From NCBI GenBank assembly GCA_963666425.2, contig OY762825.2, positions 1,024,001 to 1,088,000 on the forward strand: 64,000 nt of DNA, given 5' to 3'. This DNA is from Bacillota bacterium. GTDB lineage: Bacteria > Bacillota > JAAYKD01. A program made the translations under genes and the position numbers. Within the stretch, counting starts at the first letter, position 1; the number at the start of each line of letters is the position of its first letter. Positions 1 to 62,910 of this stretch are shown one piece after another. The notes beneath the pieces are model-generated. The model worked only from the letters and a program-made list of their open reading frames with translations. It had not been told where the DNA came from and did no database searches.

Positions 1-1986
1 CCTGCCGAATGCAGCTTCCTTGGTCACATCCGTCAGCATTTCTTTGCGATCGGCCGGAATATAGATGACATCGTATTTCTCAATTAAGTTCCCTTGCCAG
101 AGATCCTGATCCATAATAGTGATGAAGGGGAATTGGAATTGTTCCATCACGAGACGAGTCCAGCCTTCGTCCATGGCGCCGCCCAGATAACGTTTATAAA
201 TCGCGAGGCGAACCGGCTTGTACTCCATTTTTTCGGTTTCCGCTAAAGAATGCGGGAAAACACTGACTTCAAAACCAAATTTGGCAGCACCGGCCTGCAA
301 TACTTTCTTTGCTGCCGCTACCGTCAGGAAACCGCCGCAGCAAGTAGGCCGCCAAACGGGGAATCCTTGCGCTAACAGCATGTTGGCCAGGATAAACGAA
401 TCATTGTAATTGGCTTTGAAAGCGTACGCTTCGATTTTCTTTGCATCCGCCACCTTGCCTTGCAGTGGCGCCAGTTTCTCGATCTTATGGGTTTTGCCTA
501 AAATGGGTTTCTCGGCTTCCAGGACCGTTACTCCCATGAATTCGGCGTAGGTATCGGTGGTGGTATCGTAAACATTTGATTTGCCATCCAGCCGCTTACA
601 GAACCAGTTGTCATTGAAGAAGGTCCGCGCTAAGAGGGTCCGAATCGCAGCTCGTTTTGGCTGAGCGGTAAATACAACGATACTGCCGGCAGCAGCGGTG
701 AGCTCGCCGGAACTGATTGTCTCGTCGGCCAGGTGCAGTTCAATACCCTGTTGTTCCAGCACGCGCGCCAGCTTTTGAGCGGTAACCTTATCGTTTTGTT
801 TATCCATGGGAATAATAAAGCCATACGGTTTCTCGCTGGCGCCTAACGCGGTTTGACGCTGCGCTTTTTTGACGGAGTTTCTTAAAATGATATCTTTGTT
901 GCGTGCAGCACAGTCGAGTAAAGCCCAGGCAGTGACTTTTTGTTGTTCTACGATATTTCTGAGCGTCCACCAACCGCCCGGCCAAGGATGAACGAAATTG
1001 ACCTGCTGTTGATATTCCGGGAAAACACGGTCTTTGGCGCCTTCCAGCTGTTCCGCAGGAATATAGAGCGGCGTCGCTGTCTTGCAGCTGGCTGATTCGG
1101 TCAGCATACCGGCAATATTATGATGATTGGTAAACCAATGGAATCCCATATGAGCCCAGCCCGGGAATTGACCGCCGGTCAGCACACCTTGCTTGCCCTC
1201 TTCTTCCAAACGGTAGGCCATATGAGAACCATACATTCTTAATTCATTCCAAACCAATGGATCGGGATTGGGATGAATCGGATCACTGTAAGGAGCGATA
1301 TAAATGCGGGCGCCATTGGATCCCATATGATGATGATCCTGGAACGCCTGCGGATGCCAATTTTTGAACATGATTTCGCCAACATAGCGGGATTCGATCA
1401 AATTCCAGGCGAAAGCGTCGCGGTTGTTGTCATGCCCGCAATATTTGTGATAGAGCCAGGGCATACCGCAGCCTTCATATTCGGTGCCCAGATATTTATT
1501 GTACCAATCGGTCACCATGATCTGACCATCCGGGTTGAAGCAAGGCACCATAATGAAAATTACTTCCTTGAGGATGCGTAAGCCTTCTTCGGTTTCGGAC
1601 GTCAGTAAATCATAGGCCAGTTCGGGCGCCATTTGGGTGCCGCCCACTTCGCTGGCATGTAAGCTCATCGTCTGGACGACGATTGCTTTTCCTTCCTGCA
1701 CCAGTTGATCGATGGCAGCTTGTTCCAGTCCGCGCGGATCGGTCAATTTGAGATTGATTTGGCGATATTCTTCCAAACGAGCTAAATTTTCAGGAGCAGA
1801 AATGTAAGCGACCAAAAAAGGGTTCCCTTCGGTAGAAGGTCCGACATTTTGCAAAATCATGCGGTCGGTTTCTTTTGCGATCTGTTCAAAGTATTCCACG
1901 ATTTTTTCCCAGCGAATCATCTGACGCGCTGCACCCGGTTGATGGCCAAAAAAACTGGTCGGACAGGTGATCTTACCATGACTCAT
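1..1986 (-). CDS. M14 family zinc carboxypeptidase-like protein (3' end runs off the window)
   Basis: Absent from the ORF track, presumably because the stop lies outside the window. ATG at 1986 follows AGGAGTG. Reads MSHGKITCPTSFFGHQPGAARQMIRWEKIV...GPSTEGNPF, with M14 motifs SLHASEVGGTQM, NPDG, GHDNNRDAF and DHHHMG. The frame was open wherever I checked. Confidence 0.85.
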   Translation of the reverse strand, partial: MSHGKITCPTSFFGHQPGAARQMIRWEKIVEYFEQIAKETDRMILQNVGPSTEGNPFLVAYISAPENLARLEEYRQINLKLTDPRGLEQAAIDQLVQEGKAIVVQTMSLHASEVGGTQMAPELAYDLLTSETEEGLRILKEVIFIMVPCFNPDGQIMVTDWYNKYLGTEYEGCGMPWLYHKYCGHDNNRDAFAWNLIESRYVGEIMFKNWHPQAFQDHHHMGSNGARIYIAPYSDPIHPNPDPLVWNELRMYGSHMAYRLEEEGKQGVLTGGQFPGWAHMGFHWFTNHHNIAGMLTESASCKTATPLYIPAEQLEGAKDRVFPEYQQQVNFVHPWPGGWWTLRNIVEQQKVTAWALLDCAARNKDIILRNSVKKAQRQTALGASEKPYGFIIPMDKQNDKVTAQKLARVLEQQGIELHLADETISSGELTAAAGSIVVFTAQPKRAAIRTLLARTFFNDNWFCKRLDGKSNVYDTTTDTYAEFMGVTVLEAEKPILGKTHKIEKLAPLQGKVADAKKIEAYAFKANYNDSFILANMLLAQGFPVWRPTCCGGFLTVAAAKKVLQAGAAKFGFEVSVFPHSLAETEKMEYKPVRLAIYKRYLGGAMDEGWTRLVMEQFQFPFITIMDQDLWQGNLIEKYDVIYIPADRKEMLTDVTKEAAFGR

Positions 1987-6206: not shown

Positions 6207-7055
6207 TTATTTTGCATACCATTCACAGACGATACAGTCGCCGCCTTCCAGAGTAAAGCCAGCCTCAAGCACAGCTTGCTGCACATCGGCGGCCTGCGGC
6301 GGGAACATGATGGTCAGCTTGGGAACCTGCCGCTTCTTTGCTTCAATTTTAGCAAATTCGAGGCACTTTTTGGCATCGCCTCGGTATAAGCCAATATGCA
6401 AAGCTTGCTGCGGAATGAAACGGGCTCCTAAGACGACGAGATTATCTCCTTTTTCATCATAAAAAACTTTGTTTTCTCTGGCTAAGCCGCGGTAAAGTCC
6501 TGCATTCATCGGATAAAAAGTGCGGTTCATCACCATATGCCCATTCCACTTCTCCGCCATGCCTGCCAGCTGCTGCTCGGCTTCATCTTCATTCAGCAAA
6601 CGAAAATCCGCTGCGACGGTTTCATCCACCGCGGTCTCTGCTGTGATTGCTAAATTAGCCCCCCGATACTGACCGGTGACTGTAAAACCATAACGCAAGG
6701 CCAAGCCTTTGCTGACCTGATTGGTAAAACCGGTATACATGCCCATACGTGTGATACCAAGGCGGGCGGCATTCTCAAAAAAACGATTGTAAAACGCTTT
6801 GCCAATGCCTCTGCCCTGATAATTCGGATCGACGCGCAACGTTTCTAACCAAGCGCCGCCATCGTAAAGCACAGTGAATTTGCCCACACCCACAATCTTA
6901 CCGTCCAATTCGGCTACGCTCAGTTCACCAATTGGGTCATTGATAAATTCATCGGCAACCAATGAAAGATACTGCACACCTTTGATCGCAGCCCCTTCTA
7001 CAACACAAGCGGCTTCTAAATCGTCCCATTTTGCCCGGCGGATGATAATATCCAT
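6207..7055 (-). CDS. GNAT family N-acetyltransferase
   Basis: Acetyl-CoA motif LRVDPNYQGRGIG, plus a C-terminal extension. Confidence 0.85.
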   Translation of the reverse strand: MDIIIRRAKWDDLEAACVVEGAAIKGVQYLSLVADEFINDPIGELSVAELDGKIVGVGKFTVLYDGGAWLETLRVDPNYQGRGIGKAFYNRFFENAARLGITRMGMYTGFTNQVSKGLALRYGFTVTGQYRGANLAITAETAVDETVAADFRLLNEDEAEQQLAGMAEKWNGHMVMNRTFYPMNAGLYRGLARENKVFYDEKGDNLVVLGARFIPQQALHIGLYRGDAKKCLEFAKIEAKKRQVPKLTIMFPPQAADVQQAVLEAGFTLEGGDCIVCEWYAK

Positions 7056-7244
7056 GTTTCGCTCCTCCTGAACTTTTTTTCAACATCAAATGGATTAGCC
7101 ACACCCTATTGCGCTAACATCAGTGCTTTGATGCGTCTTGTGGTAGTAAATTCTCTCCTCATTGAGGAAATACCTTTTCGGCTTTTGTCTTTCTTGCTCT
7201 TTTCCTTTGCTATTTTTAGCAGCTGCAAATTTCACAAAAAAAGC

Positions 7245-7270
7245 AGGAAAACCATTGCTGCCTTGGGAAT
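7245..7270 (+). promoter_or_regulatory. SigH-like promoter upstream of hutU
   Basis: AGGA-N18-GAAT, matching the Firmicute sigma-H consensus. A divergent AGGT-N18-GAAT lies at 7150-7175 on the minus strand. Confidence 0.55.
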
Positions 7271-7354
7271 TAAACTAAATAAACAGAACGCTAAATTGCT
7301 TTCTGATCTCAGCGATTACCAATCCAGCGACAATGACATGAGGAGGTTTTTTTA

Positions 7355-9424
7355 ATGTCTTACGATGCACCTTATACTCTGCGTTTAACTGCTGCCGATG
7401 TTCCTGCGGCAAGACCTGCTTTTGCAGCGGACATTCGCCGGGCTCCCAAACGCACCGCTAAATTATCAGCCAGCGATATTCGACTTGCCTTACAAAATGC
7501 GCTGCGTTATGTTCCCAACGAATTTCATGAAGAACTGGCGGCTGAATTTTTGGAAGAATTACTGACCCGCGGCCGGATCTACGGTTACCGCTTCCGTCCG
7601 GAAGGACAAATCCGCGGCAAAGCGATTGATGAATACCCCGGCCAGTGTATTGAAGGCAAGGCATTTCAGGTAATGATCGATAACAACCTCGATTTTGCCA
7701 CTGCTCTCTACCCCTATGAACTGGTGACTTACGGTGAAACCGGACAAGTCTGCCAAAACTGGATGCAGTATCGGCTGATCAAGAAATATCTCGCCGAACT
7801 GACGCAAAACTCCACCTTAGTGATGGAATCCGGCCATCCGCTCGGCTTATTTAAATCGCATCTCCTGGCCCCCCGCGTGATCATTACCAATGGCTTGAGC
7901 GTTGGCATTGCCGACAACCTCGACGATTTTAACCGTTTGGCCGCCATCGGCGTTTCCAACTACGGTCAGATGACCGCCGGCGGCTGGATGTATATCGGAC
8001 CGCAAGGCATTGTGCACGGCACCTACAATACGGTACTGAACGCCTCTCGTAAAATCAAAGAAGGCGCCGACGATATGCGCGGTCTGCTCTTTGTCTCCTC
8101 CGGTTTGGGCGGCATGTCCGGTGCCCAGGGCAAAGCCGGCAAAATCGCCAAAGGGGTTGCCTTGGTGGCCGAAGTAGACGAAAGCCGCGTGCAGACCCGT
8201 TATGAGCAGGGCTGGGTCGATCATATCGCCTACTCGGCAGAAGAAGCCTTTACCCTGGCGAAACAATACCAGGAGCGCCAAGAAGCCACTGCCATCGCCT
8301 ATCTGGGTAATATCGTTGACCTCCTGGAATATGCTTTGCAGTTTGACTGTCACATCGACCTGCTCTCCGATCAAACCTCCTGTCATGCTGTCTACGACGG
8401 CGGTTACTGCCCGGCCGGCCTCTCTTTTGCCGAACGCACCCGCTTGCTCGAAGCAGACCGTCATTACTTCTGTCAGTTGGTCGATCTGGGACTGAAACGT
8501 CATTTTGAAGCCATTCGCCAGCTCGTGGTTAAAGGCACCTACTTCTTTGATTACGGCAATAGCTTTATGAAAGCCATTTTCGATGCCGGTGTAAGCGAAA
8601 TTGCCAAAAATGGCGAAAACACCCTGGATGGCTTCATCTGGCCTTCTTATGTGGAAGATATCCTTGGACCCATGCTCTTTGACTATGGCTATGGACCTTT
8701 TCGTTGGGTATGCTTAAGCGGCAAGCCGGAAGACCTGGATAAAACCGATGCCGCCGCCATGGAGGTCATCGATCCCAACCGCCGCTTCCAGGATAAAGAC
8801 AACTGGATCTGGATTCGCGATGCTAAAAAGAACAAGCTGGTGGTCGGTACCCAAGCCCGCATCCTCTATCAGGACGCCTGGGGTCGCACCAACATTGCCC
8901 TGCGCTTCAATCAGATGGTCCGCAACGGCGAAGTGGGTCCCATTATGATGGGACGCGACCATCACGATGTTTCCGGCACGGATTCTCCTTTCCGTGAAAC
9001 CTCAAACATCAAAGACGGTTCCAATTTAACCGCCGATATGGCCGTACAATGTTACGCCGGTAATGCCGCCAGGGGTATGTCTTTGGTTGCCCTGCATAAC
9101 GGCGGCGGCGTGGGTATCGGCAAAGCCATCAACGGTGGCTTCGGTATGGTGCTGGACGGTTCCGAACGCGTGGATACCATCTTAAAAATGGCCATGCCCT
9201 GGGATGTGATGAGCGGCGTCGCCCGCCGTGCCTGGGCACGCAACGAGAACGCGCTCTCCACTGCCGATGAATGGAATCATCAATACAGTGCCGAAGGCGA
9301 TTACCGCATCACCATGCCGTATCTGGCAGAGGATGCTGTACTGGACAGCACCTTACAAAAGCAAGCGGATGCGGTGGAACAGCTGCTGCAGCAAATTAAG
9401 AGTAGTTACGGTGAGCACAAATAA
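7355..9424 (+). CDS. hutU: Urocanate hydratase (long form)
   Basis: Motifs GQMTAGGWMYIGPQGIVHGT, GLGGMSGAQ, SDQTSCH, FDYGN, GRDHHDVSG, HNGGGVGIG; RBS AGGAGG. Confidence 0.96.
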   Translation: MSYDAPYTLRLTAADVPAARPAFAADIRRAPKRTAKLSASDIRLALQNALRYVPNEFHEELAAEFLEELLTRGRIYGYRFRPEGQIRGKAIDEYPGQCIEGKAFQVMIDNNLDFATALYPYELVTYGETGQVCQNWMQYRLIKKYLAELTQNSTLVMESGHPLGLFKSHLLAPRVIITNGLSVGIADNLDDFNRLAAIGVSNYGQMTAGGWMYIGPQGIVHGTYNTVLNASRKIKEGADDMRGLLFVSSGLGGMSGAQGKAGKIAKGVALVAEVDESRVQTRYEQGWVDHIAYSAEEAFTLAKQYQERQEATAIAYLGNIVDLLEYALQFDCHIDLLSDQTSCHAVYDGGYCPAGLSFAERTRLLEADRHYFCQLVDLGLKRHFEAIRQLVVKGTYFFDYGNSFMKAIFDAGVSEIAKNGENTLDGFIWPSYVEDILGPMLFDYGYGPFRWVCLSGKPEDLDKTDAAAMEVIDPNRRFQDKDNWIWIRDAKKNKLVVGTQARILYQDAWGRTNIALRFNQMVRNGEVGPIMMGRDHHDVSGTDSPFRETSNIKDGSNLTADMAVQCYAGNAARGMSLVALHNGGGVGIGKAINGGFGMVLDGSERVDTILKMAMPWDVMSGVARRAWARNENALSTADEWNHQYSAEGDYRITMPYLAEDAVLDSTLQKQADAVEQLLQQIKSSYGEHK

Positions 9425-9549
9425 ACAGATTGCTCCAGCTGATTATAATAAATTCTAAATAAACCCAAACTGTAAAAAAAGAAAAAGCTCTCCTTCCGGA
9501 TTAGAATGTAGATAATAAAACTACGTTCTGCTTGGAAGGAGAGCTTTTT
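9309..9549 (+). repeat. Copy 1 of a ~240 bp direct repeat (hutU 3' end plus hairpin)
   Basis: Aligns with 11669-11907; 7 mismatches over the 111 nt coding part. Confidence 0.95.
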
Positions 9550-9615
9550 TGATACGATAAACCTGCTTGATTACTGTCATTGATCATGATCAGGAAAATA
9601 GATTGGGTTATTCAG
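9455..9615. mobile_element. Putative MITE / IS-end remnant with imperfect terminal inverted repeats and an internal hairpin
   Basis: Left end CTAAATAAACCCAAACTGT; reverse complement of right end CTGAATAACCCAATCTAT. Internal stem AAGCTCTCCTTCC...GGAAGGAGAGCTT contains TAGAAT and an RBS-like GAAGGAG. No transposase. Confidence 0.5.
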
Positions 9616-9737
9616 TAACTTTAACAATTTTTTCGTGGTTAAGACTGAACTGATATTGACAACTCTAAACAGCATTGTCGAGCATTTTCTAAAAAAAAGC
9701 CTCGAATATTTACCGGTAATTTTTTTGGTCCTTTGAT

Positions 9738-11543
9738 TCAGCTCTCGTTTTGCGCTTCAATTTGCTCTTTAAGTTCATGTAAATAAAGCCAGCGTTCATT
9801 CAAAATCTCCAGGGCGGATTTTAGGGTTTCTAATTCTGAGCCCAATTCCAACAAACGAACATAGTCGCTCGAAGCCTGTTCCATTTTCTTGGAACAGGAA
9901 GCAATTTTCCCCTCTAGGACCGCTATGTCAGTATCAATCGATTCAAATTCTCGCAGTTCCTTGAAGGTGAATTTTAGCTTCTTTGGTTTTGGCAAATCGC
10001 CGTTTGACTCCGGGGTTTCTCGATTTTTCGATGCAGTTTCTTTTCTTTCTTTGTCCTGTTGCGGAAGAGGACGCTTTTCCAAATAGTCGCTAAAATTTCC
10101 GCTATAGGCTGTGATTTCGCCGCCTTCCACCACTTCAAAAATGGAACTGGACACTTTGTCAAGAAAATAGCGGTCGTGGGAAACGGCAAGGACCGCGCCC
10201 GGAAACGATTCTAAGTACTCTTCCAAAATGGTCAAGGTCTCAATGTCTAAATCGTTCGTGGGCTCATCTAACAATAAAATATTAGGTGCGGCCATGAGAA
10301 TGCTTAAAAGGAAAAGCCGGCGCCGTTCCCCGCCACTAAGTTTGCCAATTTCAGTATATTGCAGGTCAGCGGGAAACAAAAACTGATTTAGCATTTGTGC
10401 GGCGGTAAAGCTGCCCTCATCGGTCTGGATTTCGCCTGCGATTTCATGAATAAAGTCATACACTCTCATCGTGTCATCTAGTCCCCGAGATTCTTGGGTG
10501 AGATAACCTATTTTAATTGTAGAACCAATCTCCACGCTTCCCGTATCCGGCAGCACCCTGCCGGCAATAATATTTAGTAGCGTCGATTTTCCAACACCAT
10601 TTTTCCCCACAATACCGATGCGATCGTCGCGCAAGATGTTATAGGAAAAGTTGCTCAAAACACACAGATCTTCATATTTTTTAGAAACATCGACCAATTT
10701 GATCAGTTTTTTTCCAATTCGACTGGAAAGGGTCGCTATAGTAAGGCTGTCTGAATCTGAGGGACCTTCTTGCTCCTTGAGCGTCCTATATCGCTCGATG
10801 CGATCACGGCTTTTTGTGCTGCGTGCTCGGGGACCACGCATAATCCATTGTTGTTCCTTACGCAAAAGCGTTTGACGCTTGCGTTCGTTTGCATCTGCAA
10901 TGTCCTCGCGTTGTGCCTTGTATTCTAAATACTTTGAATAATTCGCTTCATAATGATAAAGCTTTGCATTTGATAACTCCGTAATACGGTTGGCAACACG
11001 TTCTAGAAAATAGCGATCATGAGTCACCATAATCAGCCCACCCGTAAATCGGCTGAGCCATTGTTCCAGCCAGAGAACCATGTCGTTATCCAAATGGTTG
11101 GTTGGTTCGTCGAGAATCAAGATGTCTGAGGGATGTGTAAGCACGGCAGCTAAGGCCACTCTTCTGCGTTGACCACCGGAAAGTGTTCCTATTAGAGCAT
11201 TTTGTTCCGTTATCTCGAGACGTGTCAACATGGCGATTACTTCATACTCATTAATCTTTCGAAATTGTGGAGGAAATTCCGAAAACACTTGTTCCAGCAC
11301 AGTCAACTCATCATTCATCACCGGGTTCTGGGGCAAAAAAGAGATTTGGACACCTCTTTGAATGGTAATAGTTCCTTCATCTGGCGTTTCCAAACCAGCT
11401 AGAATGCGAAGCAGCGTGCTTTTCCCCGAGGCGTTCAGGCCAATGATGCCGATTCGCTCTCTTTCGTTTAAATATAGAGACGTATCTTGTAGCAGCTGTT
11501 TCATGCCATAATTTTTAGATAAATGTTCAGCAGATAATAGCAT
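9738..11543 (-). CDS. ABC-F family ATPase, Uup/YfmR-like
   Basis: Two NBDs (GLNASGKST, LSGGQ, LDEPTNHLD; GKNGVGKST, LSGGE, LDEPTNDLD), no TM segments, Uup-type C-terminal coiled coil. Confidence 0.9.
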   Translation of the reverse strand: MLLSAEHLSKNYGMKQLLQDTSLYLNERERIGIIGLNASGKSTLLRILAGLETPDEGTITIQRGVQISFLPQNPVMNDELTVLEQVFSEFPPQFRKINEYEVIAMLTRLEITEQNALIGTLSGGQRRRVALAAVLTHPSDILILDEPTNHLDNDMVLWLEQWLSRFTGGLIMVTHDRYFLERVANRITELSNAKLYHYEANYSKYLEYKAQREDIADANERKRQTLLRKEQQWIMRGPRARSTKSRDRIERYRTLKEQEGPSDSDSLTIATLSSRIGKKLIKLVDVSKKYEDLCVLSNFSYNILRDDRIGIVGKNGVGKSTLLNIIAGRVLPDTGSVEIGSTIKIGYLTQESRGLDDTMRVYDFIHEIAGEIQTDEGSFTAAQMLNQFLFPADLQYTEIGKLSGGERRRLFLLSILMAAPNILLLDEPTNDLDIETLTILEEYLESFPGAVLAVSHDRYFLDKVSSSIFEVVEGGEITAYSGNFSDYLEKRPLPQQDKERKETASKNRETPESNGDLPKPKKLKFTFKELREFESIDTDIAVLEGKIASCSKKMEQASSDYVRLLELGSELETLKSALEILNERWLYLHELKEQIEAQNES

Positions 11544-11668
11544 TGTGTCTCCTTTAAAGGTTTCATTAAAACCACTATTTTTCCTTATTTTCTTGCTCCA
11601 GCAATTATATGAGCCTTCTATATTCTAACATACTATACTTCCATCGCAAAGCTCTGTCTGTAAGGATT

Positions 11669-11907
11669 TCAACATGTCGTATCTGGCAGAGGATGCCGTA
11701 CTGGACGGCACCTTACAAAAGCAAGCGGAAGCTGTGGAACAACTGCTGCAGCAAATTAAGAGTAGTCACGGTGAGCACAAATAAACGGATTGCTTAATCG
11801 CTTTCAAGAATCCTAAATAAACCTCAAACTGTAAAAAGGAAAAGCTCTCCTTCTGATTAGTACGTAGCAGCGATATCACTACGTTCTGTTCAGAAGGAGA
11901 GCTTTTT
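11669..11907 (+). repeat. Copy 2 of the hutU 3'-end plus hairpin repeat
   Basis: About 94% identical to hutU 9314-9424 in the coding part, followed by the same CTAAATAAACC..AAACTGTAAAAA and hairpin. Confidence 0.95.
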
Positions 11908-11944
11908 CTCTACAAAACTCTGCAAGATCTACCCATCAATTGGT

Positions 11945-13852
11945 TTATGGTTTCTCAACAATCGTCAGCACCATATTTTCTCCTTTGATACCAACAAAAT
12001 ACATGCGCTGCGCGTAACTGCTGGTTGCTGCCAGCAATGAATTGTCGCCCAACATTGCTGTAGGGCCACCTTTCCAACCACCTATACCGTATTGCGGACT
12101 TTGCAGGACATCTTCAAAATCAATCAACCAAAATTCTTTTTCCCATTCATTACCCTGCAGATGATACCAAGCAAAAGCGAGTGGGAAGTTTAGTTGCGAG
12201 TTTAATGTATATTCACTCGACATTTTGGTTCGTGATGCGAAGAATTTTCCTTGAGACGAAAAGAATACATTGGCACCAACCGGCGCAAAGTGCAGATCGT
12301 CTATCTGAGTAGCTTGGTCCGATTCGATCAGTTGGCGGTGCGAGACCAGATTAGTTTCTGAAACAGTACTGCTAGATATTAGATAGTCAACCCATACCAT
12401 ACCCGGCGCTGCTTTCAACTGGATTACTTCATCGCAAATCTGCTGCCTGATTTGGTTTGTAACGAGGCTCAACTGTGCAAATCCTTCGGAAATAGGGCTA
12501 TTATCCCGCGTAACGACTTTTTTCACCCAGGTAAAAACCAATTGCTCGTTATCGATAAATTTCAATTCCTGCAAGATTATATTATCACTCGTATCTAACT
12601 GACTTGCCGGATAGGTTTTTTGATTTGCCAGTTCCCCGAGATTGCCTACCTGACAAATTTGAATGGCATTTTCCTCTTCGTCAATGTAAGCGCAGAGAGA
12701 CAAATCCGGTGTAAAATGCAGTTTTGACTGCCGCCACAAAGCAGGAATTGGTAGTTTCATCGAATAAAGCTCCGTTATTTTCTGATTTTCCACTGTGAAG
12801 AGAGTCAGTGTTTCCGGCACATAGGCGGATTGCCCTGGAGCATAAGCAAATGTGGTTTCATTCAGTCTTTCTAAAAAATACGCCGGATAGTCCTGCAGAC
12901 TTTGCGTGAACTTAATTTGATCGATCGTTTGTCCTGTTCGCCAATTGAGTAAGACTGCATTGATTTGTTTTTCTCTCTCATAAACTAACAGGACATGGTC
13001 ATTATCAATTTCATAGATATACTCCAAGCCGTTGGGTACCGTGATGGATGATTCTTCTGTCCATTGTTTGACCGTTGATAAGAATGGGAGTGCGATCGTA
13101 GTTTTTTTGGTAACGGCAGCTGTGTAACCTTTCGCTGCTAAATTCTTCAAAAAAGTTGATTGATAAGCAACATGAGCTTCGTATGTCCTTTGTACGTAGT
13201 AATCATTTTCGACCATCGGAGATAACACAACCCAATTGTCATTCAAGACAGAACAATTCGGATCATATTTCTCGGCGTTAACTGCATTGCCATCCGCATA
13301 ATAGCGAAAAGAAATAACATTTTGTATTTTCTCTTTTGGAACCACAGGCTCAGATCTTTTCTGGAGAAAAATTTCGCCGATGTCTTCATATAAGATTACA
13401 TAGGCAGTATTGCTGCCTTGGTCGGCGCCTGCTAAATACACCGGGTGATCAAGCAGAAAACGCTGGATGTCTACTTCTCCGTTCAGATTTTCAAAGCTGT
13501 TTTCCAGCGGTTGGCCGGTGATCGGATCTAGTCTGCTATAAAATGCATTACCTCTATAAATTGAGGAATATTGTTTCCAAAAACATGTATACCGATCTTC
13601 TTTTTTCTCCGCTTTGCCAGAAGGAACAATTACAATACCACCATGCTCAGAAATTTCCTGTGAATAAATTGCGGCATTCTCCAACAAAAGCTGTGCAAAT
13701 TGCGTATATTGTTCCTGGTTATCCAGTAGAATTTTCGCTCTGGCTTCCATGTTCAATGGATTTATTTTTAACCCGGAACAGGAAGATGAAAGTAGAACCA
13801 AGGCAATCAGAATCAATAACGAAACGGCTCGGTTTCTCTTATAGCTGATCAA
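11945..13852 (-). CDS. Hypothetical large lipoprotein
   Basis: 635 aa ORF, signal peptide ending LLSSSC, RBS GGAGG, lower GC; beta-rich C-terminal half (fold not assigned). Confidence 0.75.
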   Translation of the reverse strand: MISYKRNRAVSLLILIALVLLSSSCSGLKINPLNMEARAKILLDNQEQYTQFAQLLLENAAIYSQEISEHGGIVIVPSGKAEKKEDRYTCFWKQYSSIYRGNAFYSRLDPITGQPLENSFENLNGEVDIQRFLLDHPVYLAGADQGSNTAYVILYEDIGEIFLQKRSEPVVPKEKIQNVISFRYYADGNAVNAEKYDPNCSVLNDNWVVLSPMVENDYYVQRTYEAHVAYQSTFLKNLAAKGYTAAVTKKTTIALPFLSTVKQWTEESSITVPNGLEYIYEIDNDHVLLVYEREKQINAVLLNWRTGQTIDQIKFTQSLQDYPAYFLERLNETTFAYAPGQSAYVPETLTLFTVENQKITELYSMKLPIPALWRQSKLHFTPDLSLCAYIDEEENAIQICQVGNLGELANQKTYPASQLDTSDNIILQELKFIDNEQLVFTWVKKVVTRDNSPISEGFAQLSLVTNQIRQQICDEVIQLKAAPGMVWVDYLISSSTVSETNLVSHRQLIESDQATQIDDLHFAPVGANVFFSSQGKFFASRTKMSSEYTLNSQLNFPLAFAWYHLQGNEWEKEFWLIDFEDVLQSPQYGIGGWKGGPTAMLGDNSLLAATSSYAQRMYFVGIKGENMVLTIVEKP

Positions 13853-14009
13853 TCGAAACCCCTCCCTTTGGTGATAAATACAATGTCTGTCATCACTGAA
13901 ACCTTTCCTATAATTGAGAAGATGGGATAGCCGCGATAGAATTACGTTTTCCTTCCACTTGGCTTCTAAATTGTCTCATTCAATCTTTCTTTGGTAGCTT
14001 CTACTATAT

Positions 14010-14036
14010 AGACGGGTTGAACGGAGAAAAATTTCC
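14010..14036 (-). promoter_or_regulatory. ECF-sigma-type promoter of the lipoprotein gene
   Basis: GGAAATTT-N13-CCGTCT on the minus strand; same motif at 20325-20352 and 20483-20509. Confidence 0.7.
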
Positions 14037-14138
14037 GTACAAACTATAATCTACATAATGTTTCAAATTGCTTTATTAAAATATATGCGCTGGCTTTTCT
14101 GGATCATTAACCACTGGGTTGACAAGGACGGTAAACTA

Positions 14139-14190
14139 TGGAACAGCTGCTGCAGTCCAAGCAAACAATTACGGTGAGCACAAGCAGACA
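14139..14190 (+). repeat. Copy 3 (degenerate) of the hutU 3' end
   Basis: Blocks TGGAACAGCTGCTGCAG (17 nt) and TACGGTGAGCACAA (14 nt) are identical to the hutU tail with near-identical spacing. Confidence 0.8.
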
Positions 14191-14241
14191 AAATAGAACA
14201 GCGACCGGCAGCCCTCAGCAAAACCGGTCACTGTTCTATTT
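14191..14241. terminator. Intrinsic terminator hairpin
   Basis: AAATAGAACAGCGACCGG...CCGGTCACTGTTCTATTT. Confidence 0.75.
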
Positions 14242-14268
14242 CTCACTGTCATGCTCAGAGTTTCATTA

Positions 14269-16011
14269 TCAAATCGAGATATTCTTGAGCCATTGTTCCT
14301 GATACGCATGCTGCGGCCAGTTTTCAGGGTTAAGCGGTCTGCCGCGCAAATCGAGAATCAGACCGCAAATTCCGCCCTGTACGCTGCAATGCAAACGAGT
14401 CAGCGGCCACTTGGCTCCGTTTTGCGGGAAGATTTGAAGCTGTGCAGTTTCTTCCTGCCCTAAAGGGATGGTCAGCAGTTCTCCCCAGTTGCCCTGCAAG
14501 CGGATCTGTCTGCCGCTATTGGTTTGGCCTATCACAGTCATGGCGGGGCTGCCATTTTTGGGCTGTCCGCTCGGGGCTAAAACCGTGCCTAAGGAAATCA
14601 GGCCTTCCCTCACCAGAAGATCCAAAGCACCTGGCAGGTCCACCTGCGAAAAGATGCCCAAATGAGGCAGCATAAAAACGGAGTCAACCAGCAGTTCCAC
14701 AATGCCTTCCGGTTGAAAGGCATCTATCAGCATGAGAGCCGCTTCCCCGCGGTTGGGAGCATTGCTGAGCACCCCACCGGAACCAATGATCACATCAAAA
14801 TTCCGTATGGTAATCTCTTTGACATGCTTGGTGCTCAGATTATCGAGCAAACCTTTGGGGATCTGTATCTTAGCCAGCGCCTGATGGTCTTGAAATGCCA
14901 GCCGCAAAGCCTCTCTGGCTACGGCTTGTTCTACCCGTAATTCTGCTGTCAGTGTTGGAATTGTTGTGGGATAGATTAATTTATTGCCGATTTGCTCCTG
15001 CAGCTCTTCCTCTGTGAGATTGATTTCTTTCGGCAGCCAACGCAGAATATTAGCAAATCCTGTGCTGGCGGCCACATGGCCGATACTGTAACTCATACCA
15101 TAATTGGCGCCAACGGATCGGACGTACGCTTGCTCAATCACCGAGAATACATCGGTTGTTGCGCCGCCGATATCCACACAGAGGATATTTTTCTGCCTTA
15201 ATTTCGCATACTCCAACAAAATGATCCCAACCGCCATGGGAGTAGGGATGATCGGTAAGGCGACTGCCTGATGCAGCTTGGCATAACCAGGCGCATGGGA
15301 CATCACATGCTCCACAAAGATTTCTTGAATGGCCTCTCTGGCAGGTGCCAGATTCTCCTGCCAAAAGGTCGGACGCAGATTATCGATCATTTTCAGCGCA
15401 AAAGAACTCCCCAGCAGATCATTTACCAATTCAGCCGCTTTCTCGCTGCCTGCATAGAGGATCGGCAGAGCGTACTGGTAACCAAATTTCGCTTTCGGCT
15501 GCGCCTCACGAATAAAATCACACATTTCAATCAGGAAGGACCCGGCTTCTGCGCCATCCACCCCTCCCGCGATCAAAATCATATCCGGGTGCAGGTTGCG
15601 CAAACATTCAATGCGTTCCAAGGCTGTGAGACCGTCGTCCGCTGCAAAAACCTGCAATAACACAGCACCCCCGCCCAAGGCGGCTCGCTCGGCACTTTCC
15701 GCTGAGATATGACTGACTTGACCGCAAACCACCATCTGCAGCCCGCCACCCGCGGAACTGGTGGATAGATAGGTAATTTCCGGCAACAATTCCTTGCCTG
15801 CCGCACAAAACAAAGATTGATTGCTGCGTTCCTCCAGCAAACGAATGGAACGGCTGACTCCAATCATCACATCCTCGTCAGGCGCTTCTACCGTAGTCGC
15901 CGTCTCGCCTCTGGCCAGTAAACGCCATGTATTGTCTTCTTTACCAAAAAGCAAGGCTTTGGTTGTCGTACTGCCTACATCGGTAACCAGGATTCGCTGC
16001 GGTATGCTCAT
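14269..16011 (-). CDS. GlmL/MutL (glutamate mutase L) family ASKHA-fold ATPase, long form
   Basis: Motifs TDVGSTTTKA, TSSAGGGLQM, AERAALGGGA, LIAGGVDG, VDIGGATTDVFS, IIGSGGVLS. Confidence 0.85.
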   Translation of the reverse strand: MSIPQRILVTDVGSTTTKALLFGKEDNTWRLLARGETATTVEAPDEDVMIGVSRSIRLLEERSNQSLFCAAGKELLPEITYLSTSSAGGGLQMVVCGQVSHISAESAERAALGGGAVLLQVFAADDGLTALERIECLRNLHPDMILIAGGVDGAEAGSFLIEMCDFIREAQPKAKFGYQYALPILYAGSEKAAELVNDLLGSSFALKMIDNLRPTFWQENLAPAREAIQEIFVEHVMSHAPGYAKLHQAVALPIIPTPMAVGIILLEYAKLRQKNILCVDIGGATTDVFSVIEQAYVRSVGANYGMSYSIGHVAASTGFANILRWLPKEINLTEEELQEQIGNKLIYPTTIPTLTAELRVEQAVAREALRLAFQDHQALAKIQIPKGLLDNLSTKHVKEITIRNFDVIIGSGGVLSNAPNRGEAALMLIDAFQPEGIVELLVDSVFMLPHLGIFSQVDLPGALDLLVREGLISLGTVLAPSGQPKNGSPAMTVIGQTNSGRQIRLQGNWGELLTIPLGQEETAQLQIFPQNGAKWPLTRLHCSVQGGICGLILDLRGRPLNPENWPQHAYQEQWLKNISI

Positions 16012-16871
16012 AGCGGATCACCCTCTTTCACCATGACATCCGGTGCAAAATGACTTTGCCAAAAGCGGTCATGCACTCCGTAAAGGATCAGGTTGCCACG
16101 AAATTGATCCGAGTTTTGTTTACGCTGCGGCCAAAACCCGTTTTCCTGATCACCTTTGATCTTGATCACGCGGCGCCGATCCAACTCCTGCCAAAGCAAG
16201 GCAGCCGTTGTTTGAAACGCCGCGACAAGTTCTTGCTCACTGCGGTCCGGCTTGAGATAGTCGCGCAGAAAATCTTCCAGCTGCGTTTCCAATGCAGCGA
16301 CGGAAACAGTCCAAAAATCCCATTGTTCTGTCAGCTCGTCGAGTTGGATGATGGGGATTTTCTTCGTCTGTTTGGTACGCTCATCATAAAAACGGGGAAG
16401 CAGCGGCGTAACCGCCGCGAGGGTTTCGTAATCGCTATAACCCATCTTGATCAAGCTGGCCAGCGCAAGATCATAATGAATCATCTCACCGTTGGGTTCC
16501 ATGGAGCGGAATAAATTCTGCATCTGCGGCTGCAGCAGTGTCGTAATCCGCTCTCTCTCCTGTGATGTTTCTTTGGTCTGCAGATGTACCAATAAGACAT
16601 TTTTACCGTATGAAAAGCTGAGGCAAAGCCAAGGACTGTCACTGACTTTGGCTTCTTCCACATCTATAGAATAAAGCGCAGGAGCGATCGGGTGCCCGCA
16701 TTTTTGACACGCACTGATCCATGCCGGCCATAAGTTCATTTGAATGCCGGCAAAAGCGGTCAGAGCACAGAATACAGCTTCATTTTTTATTTGTTTCTCT
16801 TCTCGAAATCGGAGTAATTCGGGTTGCCACTGATCCGCTAACGAGAAAACCAATGCATCAAAATAACTCAA
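16008..16871 (-). CDS. Hypothetical protein (one CxxC)
   Basis: 287 aa ORF, RBS GAGGTG, ATGA overlap with the GlmL-like gene. Confidence 0.7.
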   Translation of the reverse strand: MSYFDALVFSLADQWQPELLRFREEKQIKNEAVFCALTAFAGIQMNLWPAWISACQKCGHPIAPALYSIDVEEAKVSDSPWLCLSFSYGKNVLLVHLQTKETSQERERITTLLQPQMQNLFRSMEPNGEMIHYDLALASLIKMGYSDYETLAAVTPLLPRFYDERTKQTKKIPIIQLDELTEQWDFWTVSVAALETQLEDFLRDYLKPDRSEQELVAAFQTTAALLWQELDRRRVIKIKGDQENGFWPQRKQNSDQFRGNLILYGVHDRFWQSHFAPDVMVKEGDPL

Positions 16872-16883
16872 ACTAAGATCACC

Positions 16884-18200
16884 TCAGACTTTCTGACAAT
16901 TCTGCAGAGGGAGTTTTATTTCTTCACCCGATTCCAACCGGACAGCCAACAAAGCAATTTTCGCCCCTGCCACAGCAGCATCCTGTTCGGCAGTCAGTGC
17001 AACCACAACTGCGCTCTTGCCAAAGTGGGGCTGACGTACGATCACAACACGATCTCCCGGCTGCAAACTGCGATTTTCAGCGGGAGCTTCTTCGTAAATG
17101 GCATCCGGAGCAGCTGTCTGATTGGCAAACAGTATTTCCGGGCGAATCATGCCGGCGCGTAATTGCGTTTTCCCATCAATTGCCGCCCGTTTGCCAGCCA
17201 GACTTGCCAATTCCAGATAGCGCTTTTCAGACATGCTGCCGCTAAAACCCTGCATCAGAATTATGGTAAAGGGAAGATGCATACGATGTCCCATAATCTG
17301 CAGAGGTTCCTGTTGGCTGAATTCGCGCAAAATACTTGGCTGGATACTGCCGGCAATCAGACCGACCGCTCCGGCTTGCTCCAAACTTCTCAGCGCTTGC
17401 AACGTCACGCCGCGCCGAACCATGACGATCCTGTCATGTAAGTCATGCGCTACTTCTGCGGCGCTCAAATCCGCATCCTGCGATTTCAGCGGCAGCAGGA
17501 TACCATTCTGTTCCTGCCCAAACCCGATGATTCCCTGAAAACGAAAACCGTAACCATCGATGATAACTTCATCCTCACTGATCTGCCGAACCACTCCATC
17601 CAGATGTGCTCTGAATACCCTAGCTTGCTGCGGCATCACTTGCTTTGCTTTTGCCAGAGAAGCAGCCAGAAACGAAGCGACTACATCATGGCTAAAGAAA
17701 ATACCGCGATCCATTGCATCCGCTCCGCCGCTGGCAGCTTCTGAAGCGCTTTCTGGCTGAGCGATTTTTCTCAAAACGCTTTGCTTCACTTCCGCATCTG
17801 TGCTCTGCAGTGCTTCCCGGATAAAAATACTGCCCAGAATTTTTGAAACCAAAACGATATGGCCGGACACCGGACTTTTACAGCTTCTTTTCGTAAAGTA
17901 GGCATCTGTCACAACAAGAGGCTCCTCTTTGTTGATCCATTCTCCGCGTTGCTTTGTCATAGATTGCCAGACATCTGCTGCTTCGCAGCCCAATTCGAAC
18001 GCGACATTGCATCGAATCATGCGGCCGGGAATCGAATTGAGCTGACCGATGATGTCTTGGTCATCCACCTTTTGACCCGGTTGCACCAAAATCTCTGCCT
18101 GCCTTGGCAAATGCCGTCTGATTGTCAATTTTTGCTGCATCATTGCCTCCTTTGCGTGATCCATTCTGTGGTTTTCCAGAAATCTTTCCCATGATTCCAA
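16884..18200 (-). CDS. Hypothetical protein with N-terminal barrel-sandwich-hybrid-like repeats and a C-terminal KOW/SH3-like domain
   Basis: Segments ILVQPGQKV, KSPVSGHI, QGIIGFGQE, TQLRAGMIRPEI, LQPGDRVVIVRQPHFGKSAVV; this type is recalled as a neighbour of GlmL-like genes. Confidence 0.75.
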   Translation of the reverse strand: MESWERFLENHRMDHAKEAMMQQKLTIRRHLPRQAEILVQPGQKVDDQDIIGQLNSIPGRMIRCNVAFELGCEAADVWQSMTKQRGEWINKEEPLVVTDAYFTKRSCKSPVSGHIVLVSKILGSIFIREALQSTDAEVKQSVLRKIAQPESASEAASGGADAMDRGIFFSHDVVASFLAASLAKAKQVMPQQARVFRAHLDGVVRQISEDEVIIDGYGFRFQGIIGFGQEQNGILLPLKSQDADLSAAEVAHDLHDRIVMVRRGVTLQALRSLEQAGAVGLIAGSIQPSILREFSQQEPLQIMGHRMHLPFTIILMQGFSGSMSEKRYLELASLAGKRAAIDGKTQLRAGMIRPEILFANQTAAPDAIYEEAPAENRSLQPGDRVVIVRQPHFGKSAVVVALTAEQDAAVAGAKIALLAVRLESGEEIKLPLQNCQKV

Positions 18201-30755: not shown

Positions 30756-31418
30756 TTATTTATGGGCAACCTGCACCATCGCGGCGCGGATTACTTTCTC
30801 TTTCATTTTATAACCTTTACGCAAGACCATGGTGACTGTATTCTCTGCAACACCTTCTGTTGCTTCGCACTGCATCACGGCTTCATGCACATAGGGATCA
30901 AACACTTGGCCGAGCGACTCAATTTCCTGCAGTCCTTCTTTGGCCAGCACTTCCAGCAATTGACGATGAATCATCTGCACACCGGTTTTCAGGCTGTCGC
31001 AGTGCTCGCCTTCCGGCTGCGCTGCCGCCAAGGCACGTTCAAAATCATCCAAAATCGGCAAGAGAGCGCTCACTACCTTGACCGAAGCATATTGGTTCAA
31101 ATCCTCACGCTCTTTTTGGGTCCGGCGGCGGTAATTATCAAAATCGGCCTGCAGTCTCAGGTTAGATGCATCCAATTCTTTAACTTTCTCGGCATTTGCT
31201 AACAGCTGCTGCATTGCTTCCGCTGTCAGTATGACTGTTTGCTGTTCCGCTTTTTCTGATGCGTCAGTCTTTTCTGCCGCTTCCTCTGCCGCTGCTTTCT
31301 CTACCGTCGGTTCCGCCTGGCTTTCTTCCGGGTTTATGGCTTCTGTTTTCTTCTCTTCCTCCGGGCTGTGAAACATTTTCTTCCATTCCTTTCTGAAACG
31401 ATTGCTTTTTTGCTGCAT
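30756..31418 (-). CDS. grpE: Nucleotide exchange factor GrpE
   Basis: RLQADFDNYRRR, FDPYVHEAV. Start may be 31376. Confidence 0.95.
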   Translation of the reverse strand: MQQKSNRFRKEWKKMFHSPEEEKKTEAINPEESQAEPTVEKAAAEEAAEKTDASEKAEQQTVILTAEAMQQLLANAEKVKELDASNLRLQADFDNYRRRTQKEREDLNQYASVKVVSALLPILDDFERALAAAQPEGEHCDSLKTGVQMIHRQLLEVLAKEGLQEIESLGQVFDPYVHEAVMQCEATEGVAENTVTMVLRKGYKMKEKVIRAAMVQVAHK

Positions 31419-32995
31419 TATGATGCCAATCCTTGCTGTTGCTGTGCCGACATTTCCGTTGGCGCCTGGTCGCGCTTCTTGATGATCGTATCGATCCGCA
31501 AAATAGCTTCCGCTACTTCACCGGCTGCTCTGAGCGCATACAACTTGACTAAAGTCGGATCCATGATGCCTTGCCGATACAAATCGGTCACTGCACCGCT
31601 GTCACAATCCAAGGTCAGACTGTCATTTTGCTGATTGGACTGTGCCGCCATGACTTCTTCTACTTTTTCCAAAGGATTAAAACCGGCGTTTTCGACAATT
31701 TGTGCCAAGGGACGCTTCAACGCTTCGACTACACAGTCCAAGCCATAGGCCGACATCCCTTTCAGGCTATCCCGCAGTTTCATAATCTCTCTGGCTGCTG
31801 TAATTTCAATGGCACCGCCACCCGGTACTACCCCACCACGGACGGCTGCCTGCACAGATGAAGCTGCATCCTTGGCAATTCGTTCGCGTTCTCCCACTAC
31901 TTCTGCGGTCGAAGCACCCACCAAGATGGTCGCGATCGCTTTTTGCTGACCGCCCATGACTCTTACCCAACCCATTTTTTCATCCAAACAAACCTGTTCG
32001 GCAGAGCCCAGATAACCAGCCAGTTCGAGGGGATTTTTTCTCAATGCAGAGCGCTTCATGCGGCGTGCCCCGGTGTGCTCCGCTACGCGGCGGACGATTT
32101 TAGCGGGGACTCTGGTCAGAACCATCATACCGGCATCAGTAAAAGCCTCTTCTGCCAGCGCGTGAATGCCCTTATCCGTTAGTATCACATTGACACCCAG
32201 ATCAATGATTTTCTGTATAGCAGTTCTGAACTCATTCTGCAGTTCCATGTAGCGCGCAAAACCGCTTTCGGTTGCTAAGGCTTCTTCACCCAGCTCTTCC
32301 GGTTCCAAAGCATCATCAAACAGCATAATTTTCGCGTTTCGGATCTGATGCGGCATCTCTTTGCTGACCGGTTCTTTTTCGACGATGATTCCTAAAAAGA
32401 CTTCATTGTTGGCGCCTTCTTTGGCAAGAATCATCTCGGCTAATTTAAAAGCCGGATCCTTCAGTTTATCGGCTCCCACCAGACAGGCAGCTTCCACCGC
32501 CAAATCGGCGATATCTTCATGTTCTCTGCCGGCTACCAAGGCGACGTTTTTCAAAATCTGTCGATCCATATTATCCAGCGGACGGCTGTGTTGTTCGATG
32601 GAAGCAATCGCCTGCCTGACACCAAAACGCACTCCGTCGATCACACGGGCAATCGGCACCCCCTTGAGCACTTGTTCGGCACCTTGGCTGATCAAAGCGC
32701 TGGCAATGATGGTTGCGGTGGTTGTGCCGTCGCCGATTTCCTCCTGCTGCGCTTTGGCCACATTGATCAATAAACGGGCGGCAGGGTGTGTCACATCCAT
32801 TTTTTCCAAAATGGTAACCCCGGCATTGGTAATCAGAACGTCACCATAGCGATCGACCAGCATAGTATCCAGACCTTTCGGTCCGATGGTTCCTTCCACA
32901 GCAGAAGCGATGGCGCGGATGGCGGCAGCATTGTTCATTAATGCGGATAACTTTTCTTCGCCTTCACGGCCTTGTGTTGTGTTTGCCATAGTCAC
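31418..32995 (-). CDS. Thermosome-like (group III) TCP-1/cpn60 chaperonin
   Basis: GPKGLDTML, TNAGVTIL, GDGTTT, VPGGGAIE, ILRID; no GGM tail and no adjacent groES. Confidence 0.9.
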   Translation of the reverse strand: MTMANTTQGREGEEKLSALMNNAAAIRAIASAVEGTIGPKGLDTMLVDRYGDVLITNAGVTILEKMDVTHPAARLLINVAKAQQEEIGDGTTTATIIASALISQGAEQVLKGVPIARVIDGVRFGVRQAIASIEQHSRPLDNMDRQILKNVALVAGREHEDIADLAVEAACLVGADKLKDPAFKLAEMILAKEGANNEVFLGIIVEKEPVSKEMPHQIRNAKIMLFDDALEPEELGEEALATESGFARYMELQNEFRTAIQKIIDLGVNVILTDKGIHALAEEAFTDAGMMVLTRVPAKIVRRVAEHTGARRMKRSALRKNPLELAGYLGSAEQVCLDEKMGWVRVMGGQQKAIATILVGASTAEVVGERERIAKDAASSVQAAVRGGVVPGGGAIEITAAREIMKLRDSLKGMSAYGLDCVVEALKRPLAQIVENAGFNPLEKVEEVMAAQSNQQNDSLTLDCDSGAVTDLYRQGIMDPTLVKLYALRAAGEVAEAILRIDTIIKKRDQAPTEMSAQQQQGLAS

Positions 32996-58484: not shown

Positions 58485-58640
58485 TCCACCGCCGACCTTG
58501 ACCCTGCCAGTTTCTCTAAAAGGTCAGCCCTGTTTTCCATGGTTACATAACCTCCAGTTATTGATCAAGTAAAATTTAAAAATTCAAGATCTCAATTTCA
58601 TTGGCGTGCGCTCAATCTTGATCTGTATAACTACGACAAG

Positions 58641-61461: not shown

Positions 61462-61996
61462 ATCTTCATCTCCTATGATGATTTTCAAAAATCAGAATTG
61501 GTGCTGTCACTGTTCTTAAAACAATGGTGCTATTAACTTATAATGATCTGTAAAATCTCTTAAAACAAGAGCATGAAGACACTGAACCTGCTGTGATGAA
61601 ACCAAAGAAAAGAACGCAGAACGAAGAGAAGAATATGCAGCGACCTATGTTAACAGAGATCATTTTGGATGCATTGTTCCAGTGTGGCAAGGCACCTATG
61701 TTGAGAGGGCACCTCACTTCCACAGCTTCATAACGTGAACGGTGGGCTGCTGCACACATGAATCCGCTATTAGTTTACTGTGAGTTGTTTATTCCCCATT
61801 CTTTTGTGTGAAATGTTACTATATCACTCTAAAATTCTCTCTTGGTAATAAAATACCTTTCATTATGAATTTTATAATTATCGAACGGGTTCATTGGAAA
61901 CGGTCAAAAACCTAACCCACACCTTCAACACGAATGACCCTAAGGGAACCTATCAACCACTCACATCTTTAACGATTTCCTCTAGGGGTGTGCAAA

Positions 61997-62861
61997 ATCG
62001 GGTAGGAAGCTATCCATAAATTGGATAGTCGACCTTCCACAGCACCGTACGTACCGTTCAGTGTACGGCGCTTCCTCAGTTACAAAATTATCAACTTGTA
62101 ACAGTCTGTGAAAAGTATAGTAACCGGCTCATAGAAAGCGCTTGTTAGAGAGAGCACGGCATAGAATTGGGCTATGGGCTGTTCGCCAATAGCTCTTGCT
62201 TGTATTTGTCCACATCCATGCCAGCTCAGTTTTGATTCCAAGATGAACCAGCTGAGTGTAGCGTGTTTTCGCTCGCTTCCATCGCTTCCCGGTGACCGGC
62301 TTCTTGTCCACTCATCCAGGTCTACTACATAATGGTAGCCCTCGCTTAGGTTGTCTTGACACTTTCTTAGTGCATCATGGGTGCCTCGCTTCGGTCGAAA
62401 ACCATAACTGTTCATCTACTCCGCCCTCGCCTTTATTGTGTTTCACTTGTTTGTAGGCGTGGTTCAGATTATCCGGCGTCTGGATTTGTTCCAGCAATCC
62501 GTTCTCAGTTTGTCTTGTGTCGGTGATGTCTGTTTCTATCGTCCTTGGCAGCTGACACGCTTCCGCATACTTTCCCCGTTCCGTGAGATCTCCCACGGTA
62601 AGATGCGTTACTTTTCTCCCATAGATCCGCCGTATATATACCCTAGTATCTGGGTAGTGATTTGAATTTCGTCTTGTTTGGCAGACTCGTCCTACTTTGA
62701 GTGCCTGATACGGTTCGTGTTCCTCGGACTGGGAGTTTGCTCATCACGTTTCCTTCAGATTCCGCCTCGCGATGGACACCCTTGCGCTTGGCTAATGGTT
62801 GGCTACTACCTACCCCCACAGCGGACTTTCACCGCCTTGTTCCGCACCATGCGTGGCGCAC
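61997..62861 (-). mobile_element. Degenerate class C (IIC) group II intron with an internally deleted RT/maturase
   Basis: 5' GTGCG at 62861 directly after a terminator. Domain V/VI (GCCGTACACTGAACGGTACGTACGGTGCTGTGGAAGG...CCTACCCGAT) ends at 61997. RT fragments AYKQVKHNKGEGGVD, SYGFRPKR, VVDLD and X-domain KSYWR remain. Confidence 0.92.
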
Positions 62862-62910
62862 CAAAAAAGCGGTAAATAAGCTTGTTTTTAGCCTGTTTAC
62901 CGCTTTTTTT
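62862..62910 (-). terminator. Intrinsic terminator serving as the intron target
   Basis: AAAAAAGCGGTAAA...TTTACCGCTTTTTT abutting the intron 5' end. Confidence 0.88.

Follow-up and report, generated by a model that had tools for sequence, protein, structure and literature searches.

Displaced copies of the hutU 3′ end in an uncultured Bacillota lineage, a possible scar of homology-anchored insertions

An intact gene followed by displaced copies of its own 3′ end is an architecture known from att-type and displacement-type arrays. Cis-mobilizable elements (CIMEs) are described as decayed elements that keep attL and attR in a review that gives repeat lengths of 8-60 bp (PMC5704250). For the type VI secretion system (T6SS) arrays of V. 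cholerae, sequential displacement with a pushed-back 3′ end was proposed and noted as rare (PMC5361080). In a selection at the E. coli lacZ end, gene-end duplications were found by PCR in 56 of 60 clones; those in the 14 sequenced clones measured 109-950 bp and were ascribed to a single crossover of a trimmed circle (PMC3240628). Here, we describe a 4.9-kb array with two joints at the end of hutU, the urocanate hydratase gene, in a 64,000-nt stretch of a Bacillota bacterium genome (GCA_963666425.2, contig OY762825.2, positions 1,024,001 to 1,088,000; hereafter, the window). An initial annotation, made from the sequence alone, had proposed insertions that restore hutU and displace its old ends. 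Two such successive insertions are well supported, because the geometry, the decay of the second tail copy, the atypical cargo and the rarity of the feature in a background screen all agree with them.

The hutU gene (7355-9424, plus strand) encodes a long-form urocanate hydratase of 689 aa, as annotated, with a TIGR01228 score of 418 bits against a cut-off of 375 and matches to the Pfam Urocanase N-terminal, core and C-terminal domains. Its C-terminal extension is clade-specific, being common to the homologues P0002-P0014 and P0017. Copy 1, the functional end (9309-9549, plus), comprises the last 116 nt of hutU and 125 nt downstream. Copy 2 (11669-11907, plus), a displaced end freed from protein selection, spans -115 to +125 relative to the hutU stop, and copy 3 (14139-14196, plus), the oldest displaced end and frameshifted, runs from -49 to about the stop. 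The order of the array is hutU with tail and hairpin H1, an ABC-F gene (minus), the second tail with hairpin H2, a lipoprotein gene (minus), the third tail with hairpin H3, and a glmL-like gene (minus). The 3′ end of hutU is thus restored, and the displaced fragments lie downstream in direct orientation, as in site-specific arrays.

In a self-comparison of the window, 9309-9549 and 11669-11907 were identical at 207 of 244 positions (85%, E 1e-69), and 9375-9420 and 14139-14183 at 38 of 47 (81%, E 4e-5), with a net loss of 1 nt in copy 3. Copies 1 and 2 differ by 7 mismatches over 110 nt of the coding part (9315-9424), or 8 over 116 nt when counted from 9309, and by 21 mismatches and 8 gap columns in the 128 alignment columns that cover the 125 nt past the stop. 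The local alignment score of copy 3 (42) lies above the best scores elsewhere in the window (26-27) and the maximum of 40 shuffled queries (31), and copy 3 is therefore real. These results uphold the annotated tail coordinates, the mismatch count (given there as 7/111), the repetition of some 120 nt of downstream sequence and the degenerate third copy. Beyond that annotation, the hairpin common to copies 1 and 2 is missing from copy 3, where a different one stands at 14191-14241, and the copies start at different points of hutU: the left edges of copies 2 and 3 (-115 vs -49) are 66 nt apart, and only -49 to -4 is common to all three. When the last 150 nt of 860 open reading frames (ORFs) were screened, drawn from the window and 80 other loci with 1.5 Mb in total, the only free-standing downstream copies were the two of hutU and one 21-nt local repeat; five further matches fell inside paralogous ORFs.

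The coding-derived part of copy 2 shows 3 synonymous and 5 non-synonymous differences (pS 0.129, pN 0.057, pN/pS 0.44), the pattern expected when selection holds one copy and no longer acts on the other, and copy 2 decays like a released pseudo-tail. At residue 672, the D of the working hutU is the derived state, and P0002-P0004 have E, as copy 2 does. The 36-residue peptide of copy 2 differs at 3 positions from P0002, at 4 from the window HutU and at 7 from P0003 and P0004. Since it is nearer to P0002 and the window than to P0003 and P0004, the ABC-F event probably postdates the split from strains of about 96% HutU identity. Copy 3 is older than copy 2, and both events look old.

Two further features of the tails were observed. 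A perfect 10-bp palindrome, TGCTGCAGCA, lies at 9384-9393 within the part common to the three copies, with its last two bases altered in copy 3; it would be a candidate recombinase core if the array arose by site-specific recombination. In addition, copies 2 and 3 start at or just before a hutU-frame ATG (11662-11676 and 14124-14140) with AAGGA 7-9 nt upstream, a coincidence noticed post hoc. The ATG in copy 2 is predicted to yield a 36-aa peptide resembling the HutU C-terminal helix, and the promoter-motif scan listed no plus-strand promoter before copy 2.

Two of the three hairpins are homologous. H1 (9481-9550; z = -8.5 on the plus and -7.1 on the minus strand) is a long-stem, terminator-like hairpin on both strands, as is its homologue H2 (11839-11907; z = -9.4 and -8.4), whereas H3 (14191-14241; z = -6.2 on both strands) showed no similarity to H1. 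H1 contains 4 internal G-U pairs, which hold only on the hutU strand. Relative to the H1 pairs, H2 has three G-U pairs changed to Watson-Crick pairs, one two-sided change and one broken pair. Because its minus-strand folding (-43.8 kcal/mol) is much improved over that of H1 (-31.6 kcal/mol) and only 37 nt separate its end from the stop of the lipoprotein gene, H2 has likely been kept as the predicted terminator of the lipoprotein gene. We infer that H3 served in the ancestor as the terminator separating hutU from the glmL-like gene that faces it. The last frame of copy 3 reads YGEHKQTK followed by a stop at the foot of H3, so that the end of copy 3 and H3 plausibly represent an ancestral gene end with its terminator.

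Neither Rfam nor ARAGORN gave a match within the array. Several other readings of the hairpins were tried and rejected. A remnant of an insertion sequence end had been suggested by a resemblance (a -10-like and a ribosome-binding-site-like motif within the hairpin) and was dropped, as phage and plasmid searches lent it no support. Readings as dif-like or attC-like sites were rejected by eye against the motifs of such sites. An integron cassette array was likewise set aside: the family scans of the window ORFs contained no IntI, and by eye the hairpin ends are A/T tracts rather than the RYYYAAC/GTTRRRY ends of attC sites.

Each interval between tail copies holds a single long minus-strand ORF, as annotated, and each cassette consists of one intact gene with less than 300 nt of flank. 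The first gene (9738-11543, minus) encodes a 601-aa Uup-like ABC-F ATPase with ABC_tran_Xtn and ABC_tran_CTD domains. Among the matches listed, it scores under the cut-off of every named resistance ABC-F family and over the broad NF000355 cut-off. Its nearest relatives are 93, 79, 75, 74 and 71% identical, and the named ones (64-71%) come from Clostridia, Oscillospiraceae and a Firmicutes metagenome-assembled genome (MAG). The second gene (11945-13852, minus) encodes a 635-aa orphan protein that matched no Pfam, NCBIfam or PHROG family and has five relatives at 84-90% identity among 8000 scored candidates and five distant ones at 18-22%. Cys25 is nearly invariant, which supports its reading as a lipoprotein. 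Its structural model (mean predicted local distance difference test score, pLDDT, 74.7) combines an N-terminal alpha/beta part with a C-terminal region that is predicted to be a beta-propeller; the model matches beta-propellers at about 10% identity, and a weak Atlas lead (0.78) agrees.

Both cargo genes are compositionally foreign. The GC content at third codon positions (GC3) is 0.444 for the ABC-F gene and 0.409 for the lipoprotein gene, whereas 22 core genes of the window have 0.553 +/- 0.031, the lowest being 0.497. For codon adaptation, the two cargo genes score 0.58 and 0.62, respectively, and the core genes 0.695 +/- 0.029. Atypical composition of this kind is also seen in several further accessory genes of the window; the cargo composition therefore marks acquisition, not mechanism. 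The initial annotation gave each gene a promoter-like motif of its own, which stood for the ABC-F gene (TTGCGA-16-TG-TAGAAT, 11649 to 11622, minus, with copy 2 starting 20 nt away) and not for the lipoprotein gene, before which no minus-strand motif is listed. The ABC-F motif is not above chance by itself: 12 promoter motifs were found in 7000-14500, and the mean for shuffled sequence was 11.9.

P0002 differs from the window HutU at 3 of 689 residues, and the contig that encodes it has the same length (1,031,216 nt) as the one with the lipoprotein allele P0123 (88% identity), which suggests that a near-identical strain also carries the lipoprotein gene, as a far more divergent allele. As a separate observation, the last 36 residues of the lipoprotein are invariant in all six alleles, the remainder being mosaic and 84-90% identical; the invariant end may reflect exchange anchored next to copy 2.

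The joints of the array bear on how it arose. Under site-specific accretion, the insertions should have a single crossover point and related arms, and an integrase should exist somewhere; homology-anchored insertion instead predicts that the joints vary, that everything from the joint to where homology stops is duplicated, terminator and all, and that arms are lacking. The sequence that precedes copy 3 resembles the rest of hutU no more than random windows (p = 0.46) or shuffles (p = 0.27) do. The flanks before copies 2 and 3 have no common arm (best local match 8-10 nt), and the sequence shared beyond the tails is confined to the proximal 125 nt. The array thus combines a homologous anchor on one side with a non-homologous joint on the other, at positions that vary (-115 and -49, two joints only). 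The 241-nt repeat includes the terminator and is longer than the 8-60 bp usual in integrative and mobilizable elements (IMEs) with tyrosine integrases (PMC5704250).

Integrases were searched for in the 64-kb window of the 2.9-Mb contig. No integrase family was found among the window ORFs scanned (26 in one library scan, 28 in the Pfam scan), and no integrase or recombinase remnant was present in 18 spacer frames, in line with the integrase-free array of the initial annotation. The matches that the spacer frames did give were rejected, being a spurious EGF_CA below cut-off and PHROG matches with E > 0.1. No phage or plasmid record was found with the tail in the role of an attP: searches with the repeat, with the hairpin and with the entire interval yielded chance or ABC-F motif matches, and one plasmid match (H8) proved to be an ordinary complete hut operon. 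These results, together with the differing left edges and the lack of arms, give no support to an att-type site served by a recombinase. Of the two routes offered in the initial annotation, homology-assisted uptake fits better than service in trans. The comEA and comEC genes named there in connection with uptake are both present in the window and might have contributed to it; both genes are widespread, and their presence is no proof of competence.

The explanation that we favor, at a probability of roughly 0.45, is that related-strain DNA was inserted twice in succession, each time anchored by homology and with no dedicated recombinase, and that the array is the scar of these events. The ancestor would have had hutU, its tail and H3 facing glmL. 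In each event, related-strain DNA with a different gene behind hutU would have recombined by homology in the hutU end, and the other end of the donor would have been joined somewhere within the tail of the resident hutU, where no homology guided it, either through a single crossover of a trimmed, recircularised fragment or through a joint of the homology-facilitated illegitimate recombination (HFIR) type. By this route hutU would stay whole, and the resident end, terminator and neighbor would move downstream. The first event would have brought the lipoprotein gene and hairpin H, with a joint at -49 or earlier, and the second the ABC-F gene, with a joint at -115; the tail remnants would have decayed thereafter, with H2 retained as the lipoprotein terminator.

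Several points weigh against this explanation. It requires donor alleles of the form hutU-H-ABC-F without a duplicate, and HFIR is very rare experimentally (3.5e-10; PMC3240628). In its favor, the mosaic structure of the lipoprotein alleles (58 informative sites; neighboring-site incompatibility 0.38 vs 0.47 permuted, p = 0.0005 in a test like the pairwise homoplasy index, PHI) points to inter-strain recombination in that cargo gene, in a test of six protein sequences whose genomic positions are not established and to which homoplasy could contribute. Between copies 1 and 2, non-coding divergence exceeds coding divergence, not significantly (p = 0.16), a comparison that bears on allelic versus duplicative origin. 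On the opposing side, copy 3, with 49 nt, an end near the stop and a native terminator next to it, looks like a classical displaced attB fragment, and deletion at a later time could account both for the loss of integrases and for left boundaries that moved.

For comparison, 80 hutU loci of 67-74% identity were kept from at least 603 stretches of a genome scan with HutU; these fall outside the window's own clade (77-99% HutU identity) and are hence uninformative for that clade. Their downstream sequence reaches at least 5 kb in 66 loci and less than 2 kb in 7, and the stops of four (L024, L026, L065 and L077) are doubtful. None of the 80 had a displaced hutU tail, which lends no support to hutU as a general capture site; two weak downstream candidates reaching the gene end at L016 and L018 were rejected on inspection as A/T-rich matches. 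The closest locus among the matches listed, from a Symbiobacteriaceae MAG (L002), has a different downstream gene, and synteny with the hutU-glmL interval was seen at none of the 80. The first downstream ORF belongs to the hut pathway in 53 of 78 loci (37 formiminotransferases, 14 amidohydrolases, 1 lyase and 1 cyclodeaminase); it is IS200-like in one and an integrase in none, and a crude recombinase motif was found in none of 515 downstream ORFs. In most of the compared genomes the hutU end lies inside an operon, whereas the window hutU stands alone, outside any hut operon, and faces a convergent gene, which may be a reason why insertions were tolerated. In one locus (L080, Clostridium senegalense), many dispersed intergenic repeats of 50-100 nt surround hutU. 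The initial annotation knew of no account of hutU as such a site, and we found none in a literature search outside which most subscription papers and the TIGER target tables lay. The supplements of PMC10083194, so far as accessible, contain neither "urocan" nor "hutU", a weak indication, as few target genes are named there.

The main rival, a possible if somewhat unlikely origin, is the accretion of decayed site-specific elements of the CIME type, in which two related elements, each with an attP carrying the hutU tail and H, integrated in turn and later lost their integrase and transfer genes by deletion; such elements might still be substrates of a recombinase encoded at another place in the genome. 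The geometry of a restored gene with displaced 3′ fragments, the oldest farthest, is canonical (compare PMC4383910), accretion of decayed elements has been described in Firmicutes (PMC5704250), copy 3 has a length between 8 and 60 bp and an end close to the stop, and two events at one gene with no comparable case in 860 ORFs suggest targeting. However, the left edges differ, the distal flanks lack shared arms, the spacers lack remnants, and neither an attP in phage or plasmid records nor a tail, integrase or recombinase motif at the other hutU loci was found; both elements must, moreover, have shrunk to exactly one intact gene. We retain this origin at the stated strength because deletion could explain the edges, arms and remnants and because 64 kb of the 2.9-Mb contig was covered.

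The similarity between copies 1 and 2 stops exactly at the hairpin end, a point in favor of one-step duplication-insertions, in which foreign DNA would have been caught during break repair or template switching near a long hairpin and the resident tail (and H) duplicated as a long target duplication, with no donor allele. A simple duplication after which each branch decayed by about 5% would fit the divergence (pN 0.057, pS 0.129), and the Clostridia, Oscillospiraceae and Firmicutes MAG relatives of the ABC-F protein argue for an outside origin at some point. This course of events is nevertheless improbable: it requires two rare double-illegitimate events at one spot, and the right boundaries relate differently to the hairpins, H being included and H3 excluded. 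An assembly chimera of co-occurring strains might be suspected in an apparently uncultured lineage whose relatives include MAG records, yet it is hardly credible here. The array sits in a contig of 2,902,649 nt, the copies differ by 15-19% with indels, and the junctions are unique. Copy 2 has substitutions (P to S and Y to H) where P0002-P0004 do not vary, and copy 3 has lost its frame; therefore, neither is the working hutU end of another strain.

The right flank of the array is formed by the glmL/MutL-family gene (14269-16011, minus; PF13941), whose composition is host-like (GC3 0.56). Upstream of it, at 16008-18200 (minus), lie two ORFs of 287 and 438 aa without a Pfam or NCBIfam match. Elsewhere in the window, a thermosome-like chaperonin gene (31418-32995, minus) lies inside an hrcA-grpE-dnaK-dnaJ cluster, which we take to be the group III chaperonin arrangement of some Bacillota. 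A low-GC region at about 49-64 kb, which looks acquired, holds paralogous HD-GYP domains (58608-59250 and 63057-63699, 87% identical over 643 nt). Between the HD-GYP genes, at 61500-62900 (minus), there is a decayed group II intron with an Rfam D1-D4-3 match at 62603-62776 and, by eye, apparent reverse-transcriptase fragments.

Overall, the hutU array is real, lineage-local and probably fossil, and its effect looks local, the feature being absent from the 80 other loci examined. It is routine to interpret displaced gene ends as the att sites of islands driven by an integrase; if the integrase-free origin is true, the array is a natural case in which homology-anchored uptake left the same signature. 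If the array is instead a set of decayed CIMEs, hutU joins the integrase targets in one uncultured lineage. With 4.9 kb and two joints, the locus is compact enough for the two routes to be distinguished by strain comparison. A bolder and doubtful extension is that the free 3′ end of hutU in this lineage is a live, integrase-free, single-gene capture slot, where convergent genes are swapped by natural transformation and stacked by off-register joints, each stacking copying a bidirectional terminator that adapts to the strand of the new gene. Sequential displacement, known from toxin-immunity loci, would then extend to an anchor that is a housekeeping gene and to cargo of any kind.

Compared with the described systems, the hutU locus fits neither the att-type nor the displacement-type definition fully. 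It shares with CIMEs and the accretion of IMEs and integrative and conjugative elements (PMC5704250, and the ICESt1 family cited there) a restored target, tandem displaced 3′ fragments, integrase-less units and a Firmicutes host, and differs in the lack of detected shared crossover or att arms, in the 241-nt repeat with a terminator, and in single-gene units without conjugation or integrase remnants. As in Islander-type tDNA islands (PMC4383910), a regenerated target and a displaced fragment mark the ends, and tandem arrays occur among Islander islands as well; here, the target is a protein gene, and the integrase gene that Islander demands inside each island is absent from the array. The T6SS effector-immunity and Rhs C-terminal displacement arrays (PMC5361080) likewise have a conserved upstream anchor, the newest module proximal and older 3′ ends pushed back, with no integrase known and HFIR proposed. 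In contrast to these, hutU as an anchor encodes a metabolic enzyme and receives an equivalent end in place of its own, and neither toxin tips nor immunity genes make up the cargo, which consists of convergent genes that are unrelated. Finally, in the E. coli lacZ experiment (PMC3240628), trimmed circles also left gene-end duplications of variable length flanking foreign DNA with no integrase, in a laboratory selection with a plasmid substrate during conjugation, whereas the hutU array is natural, old and repeated.

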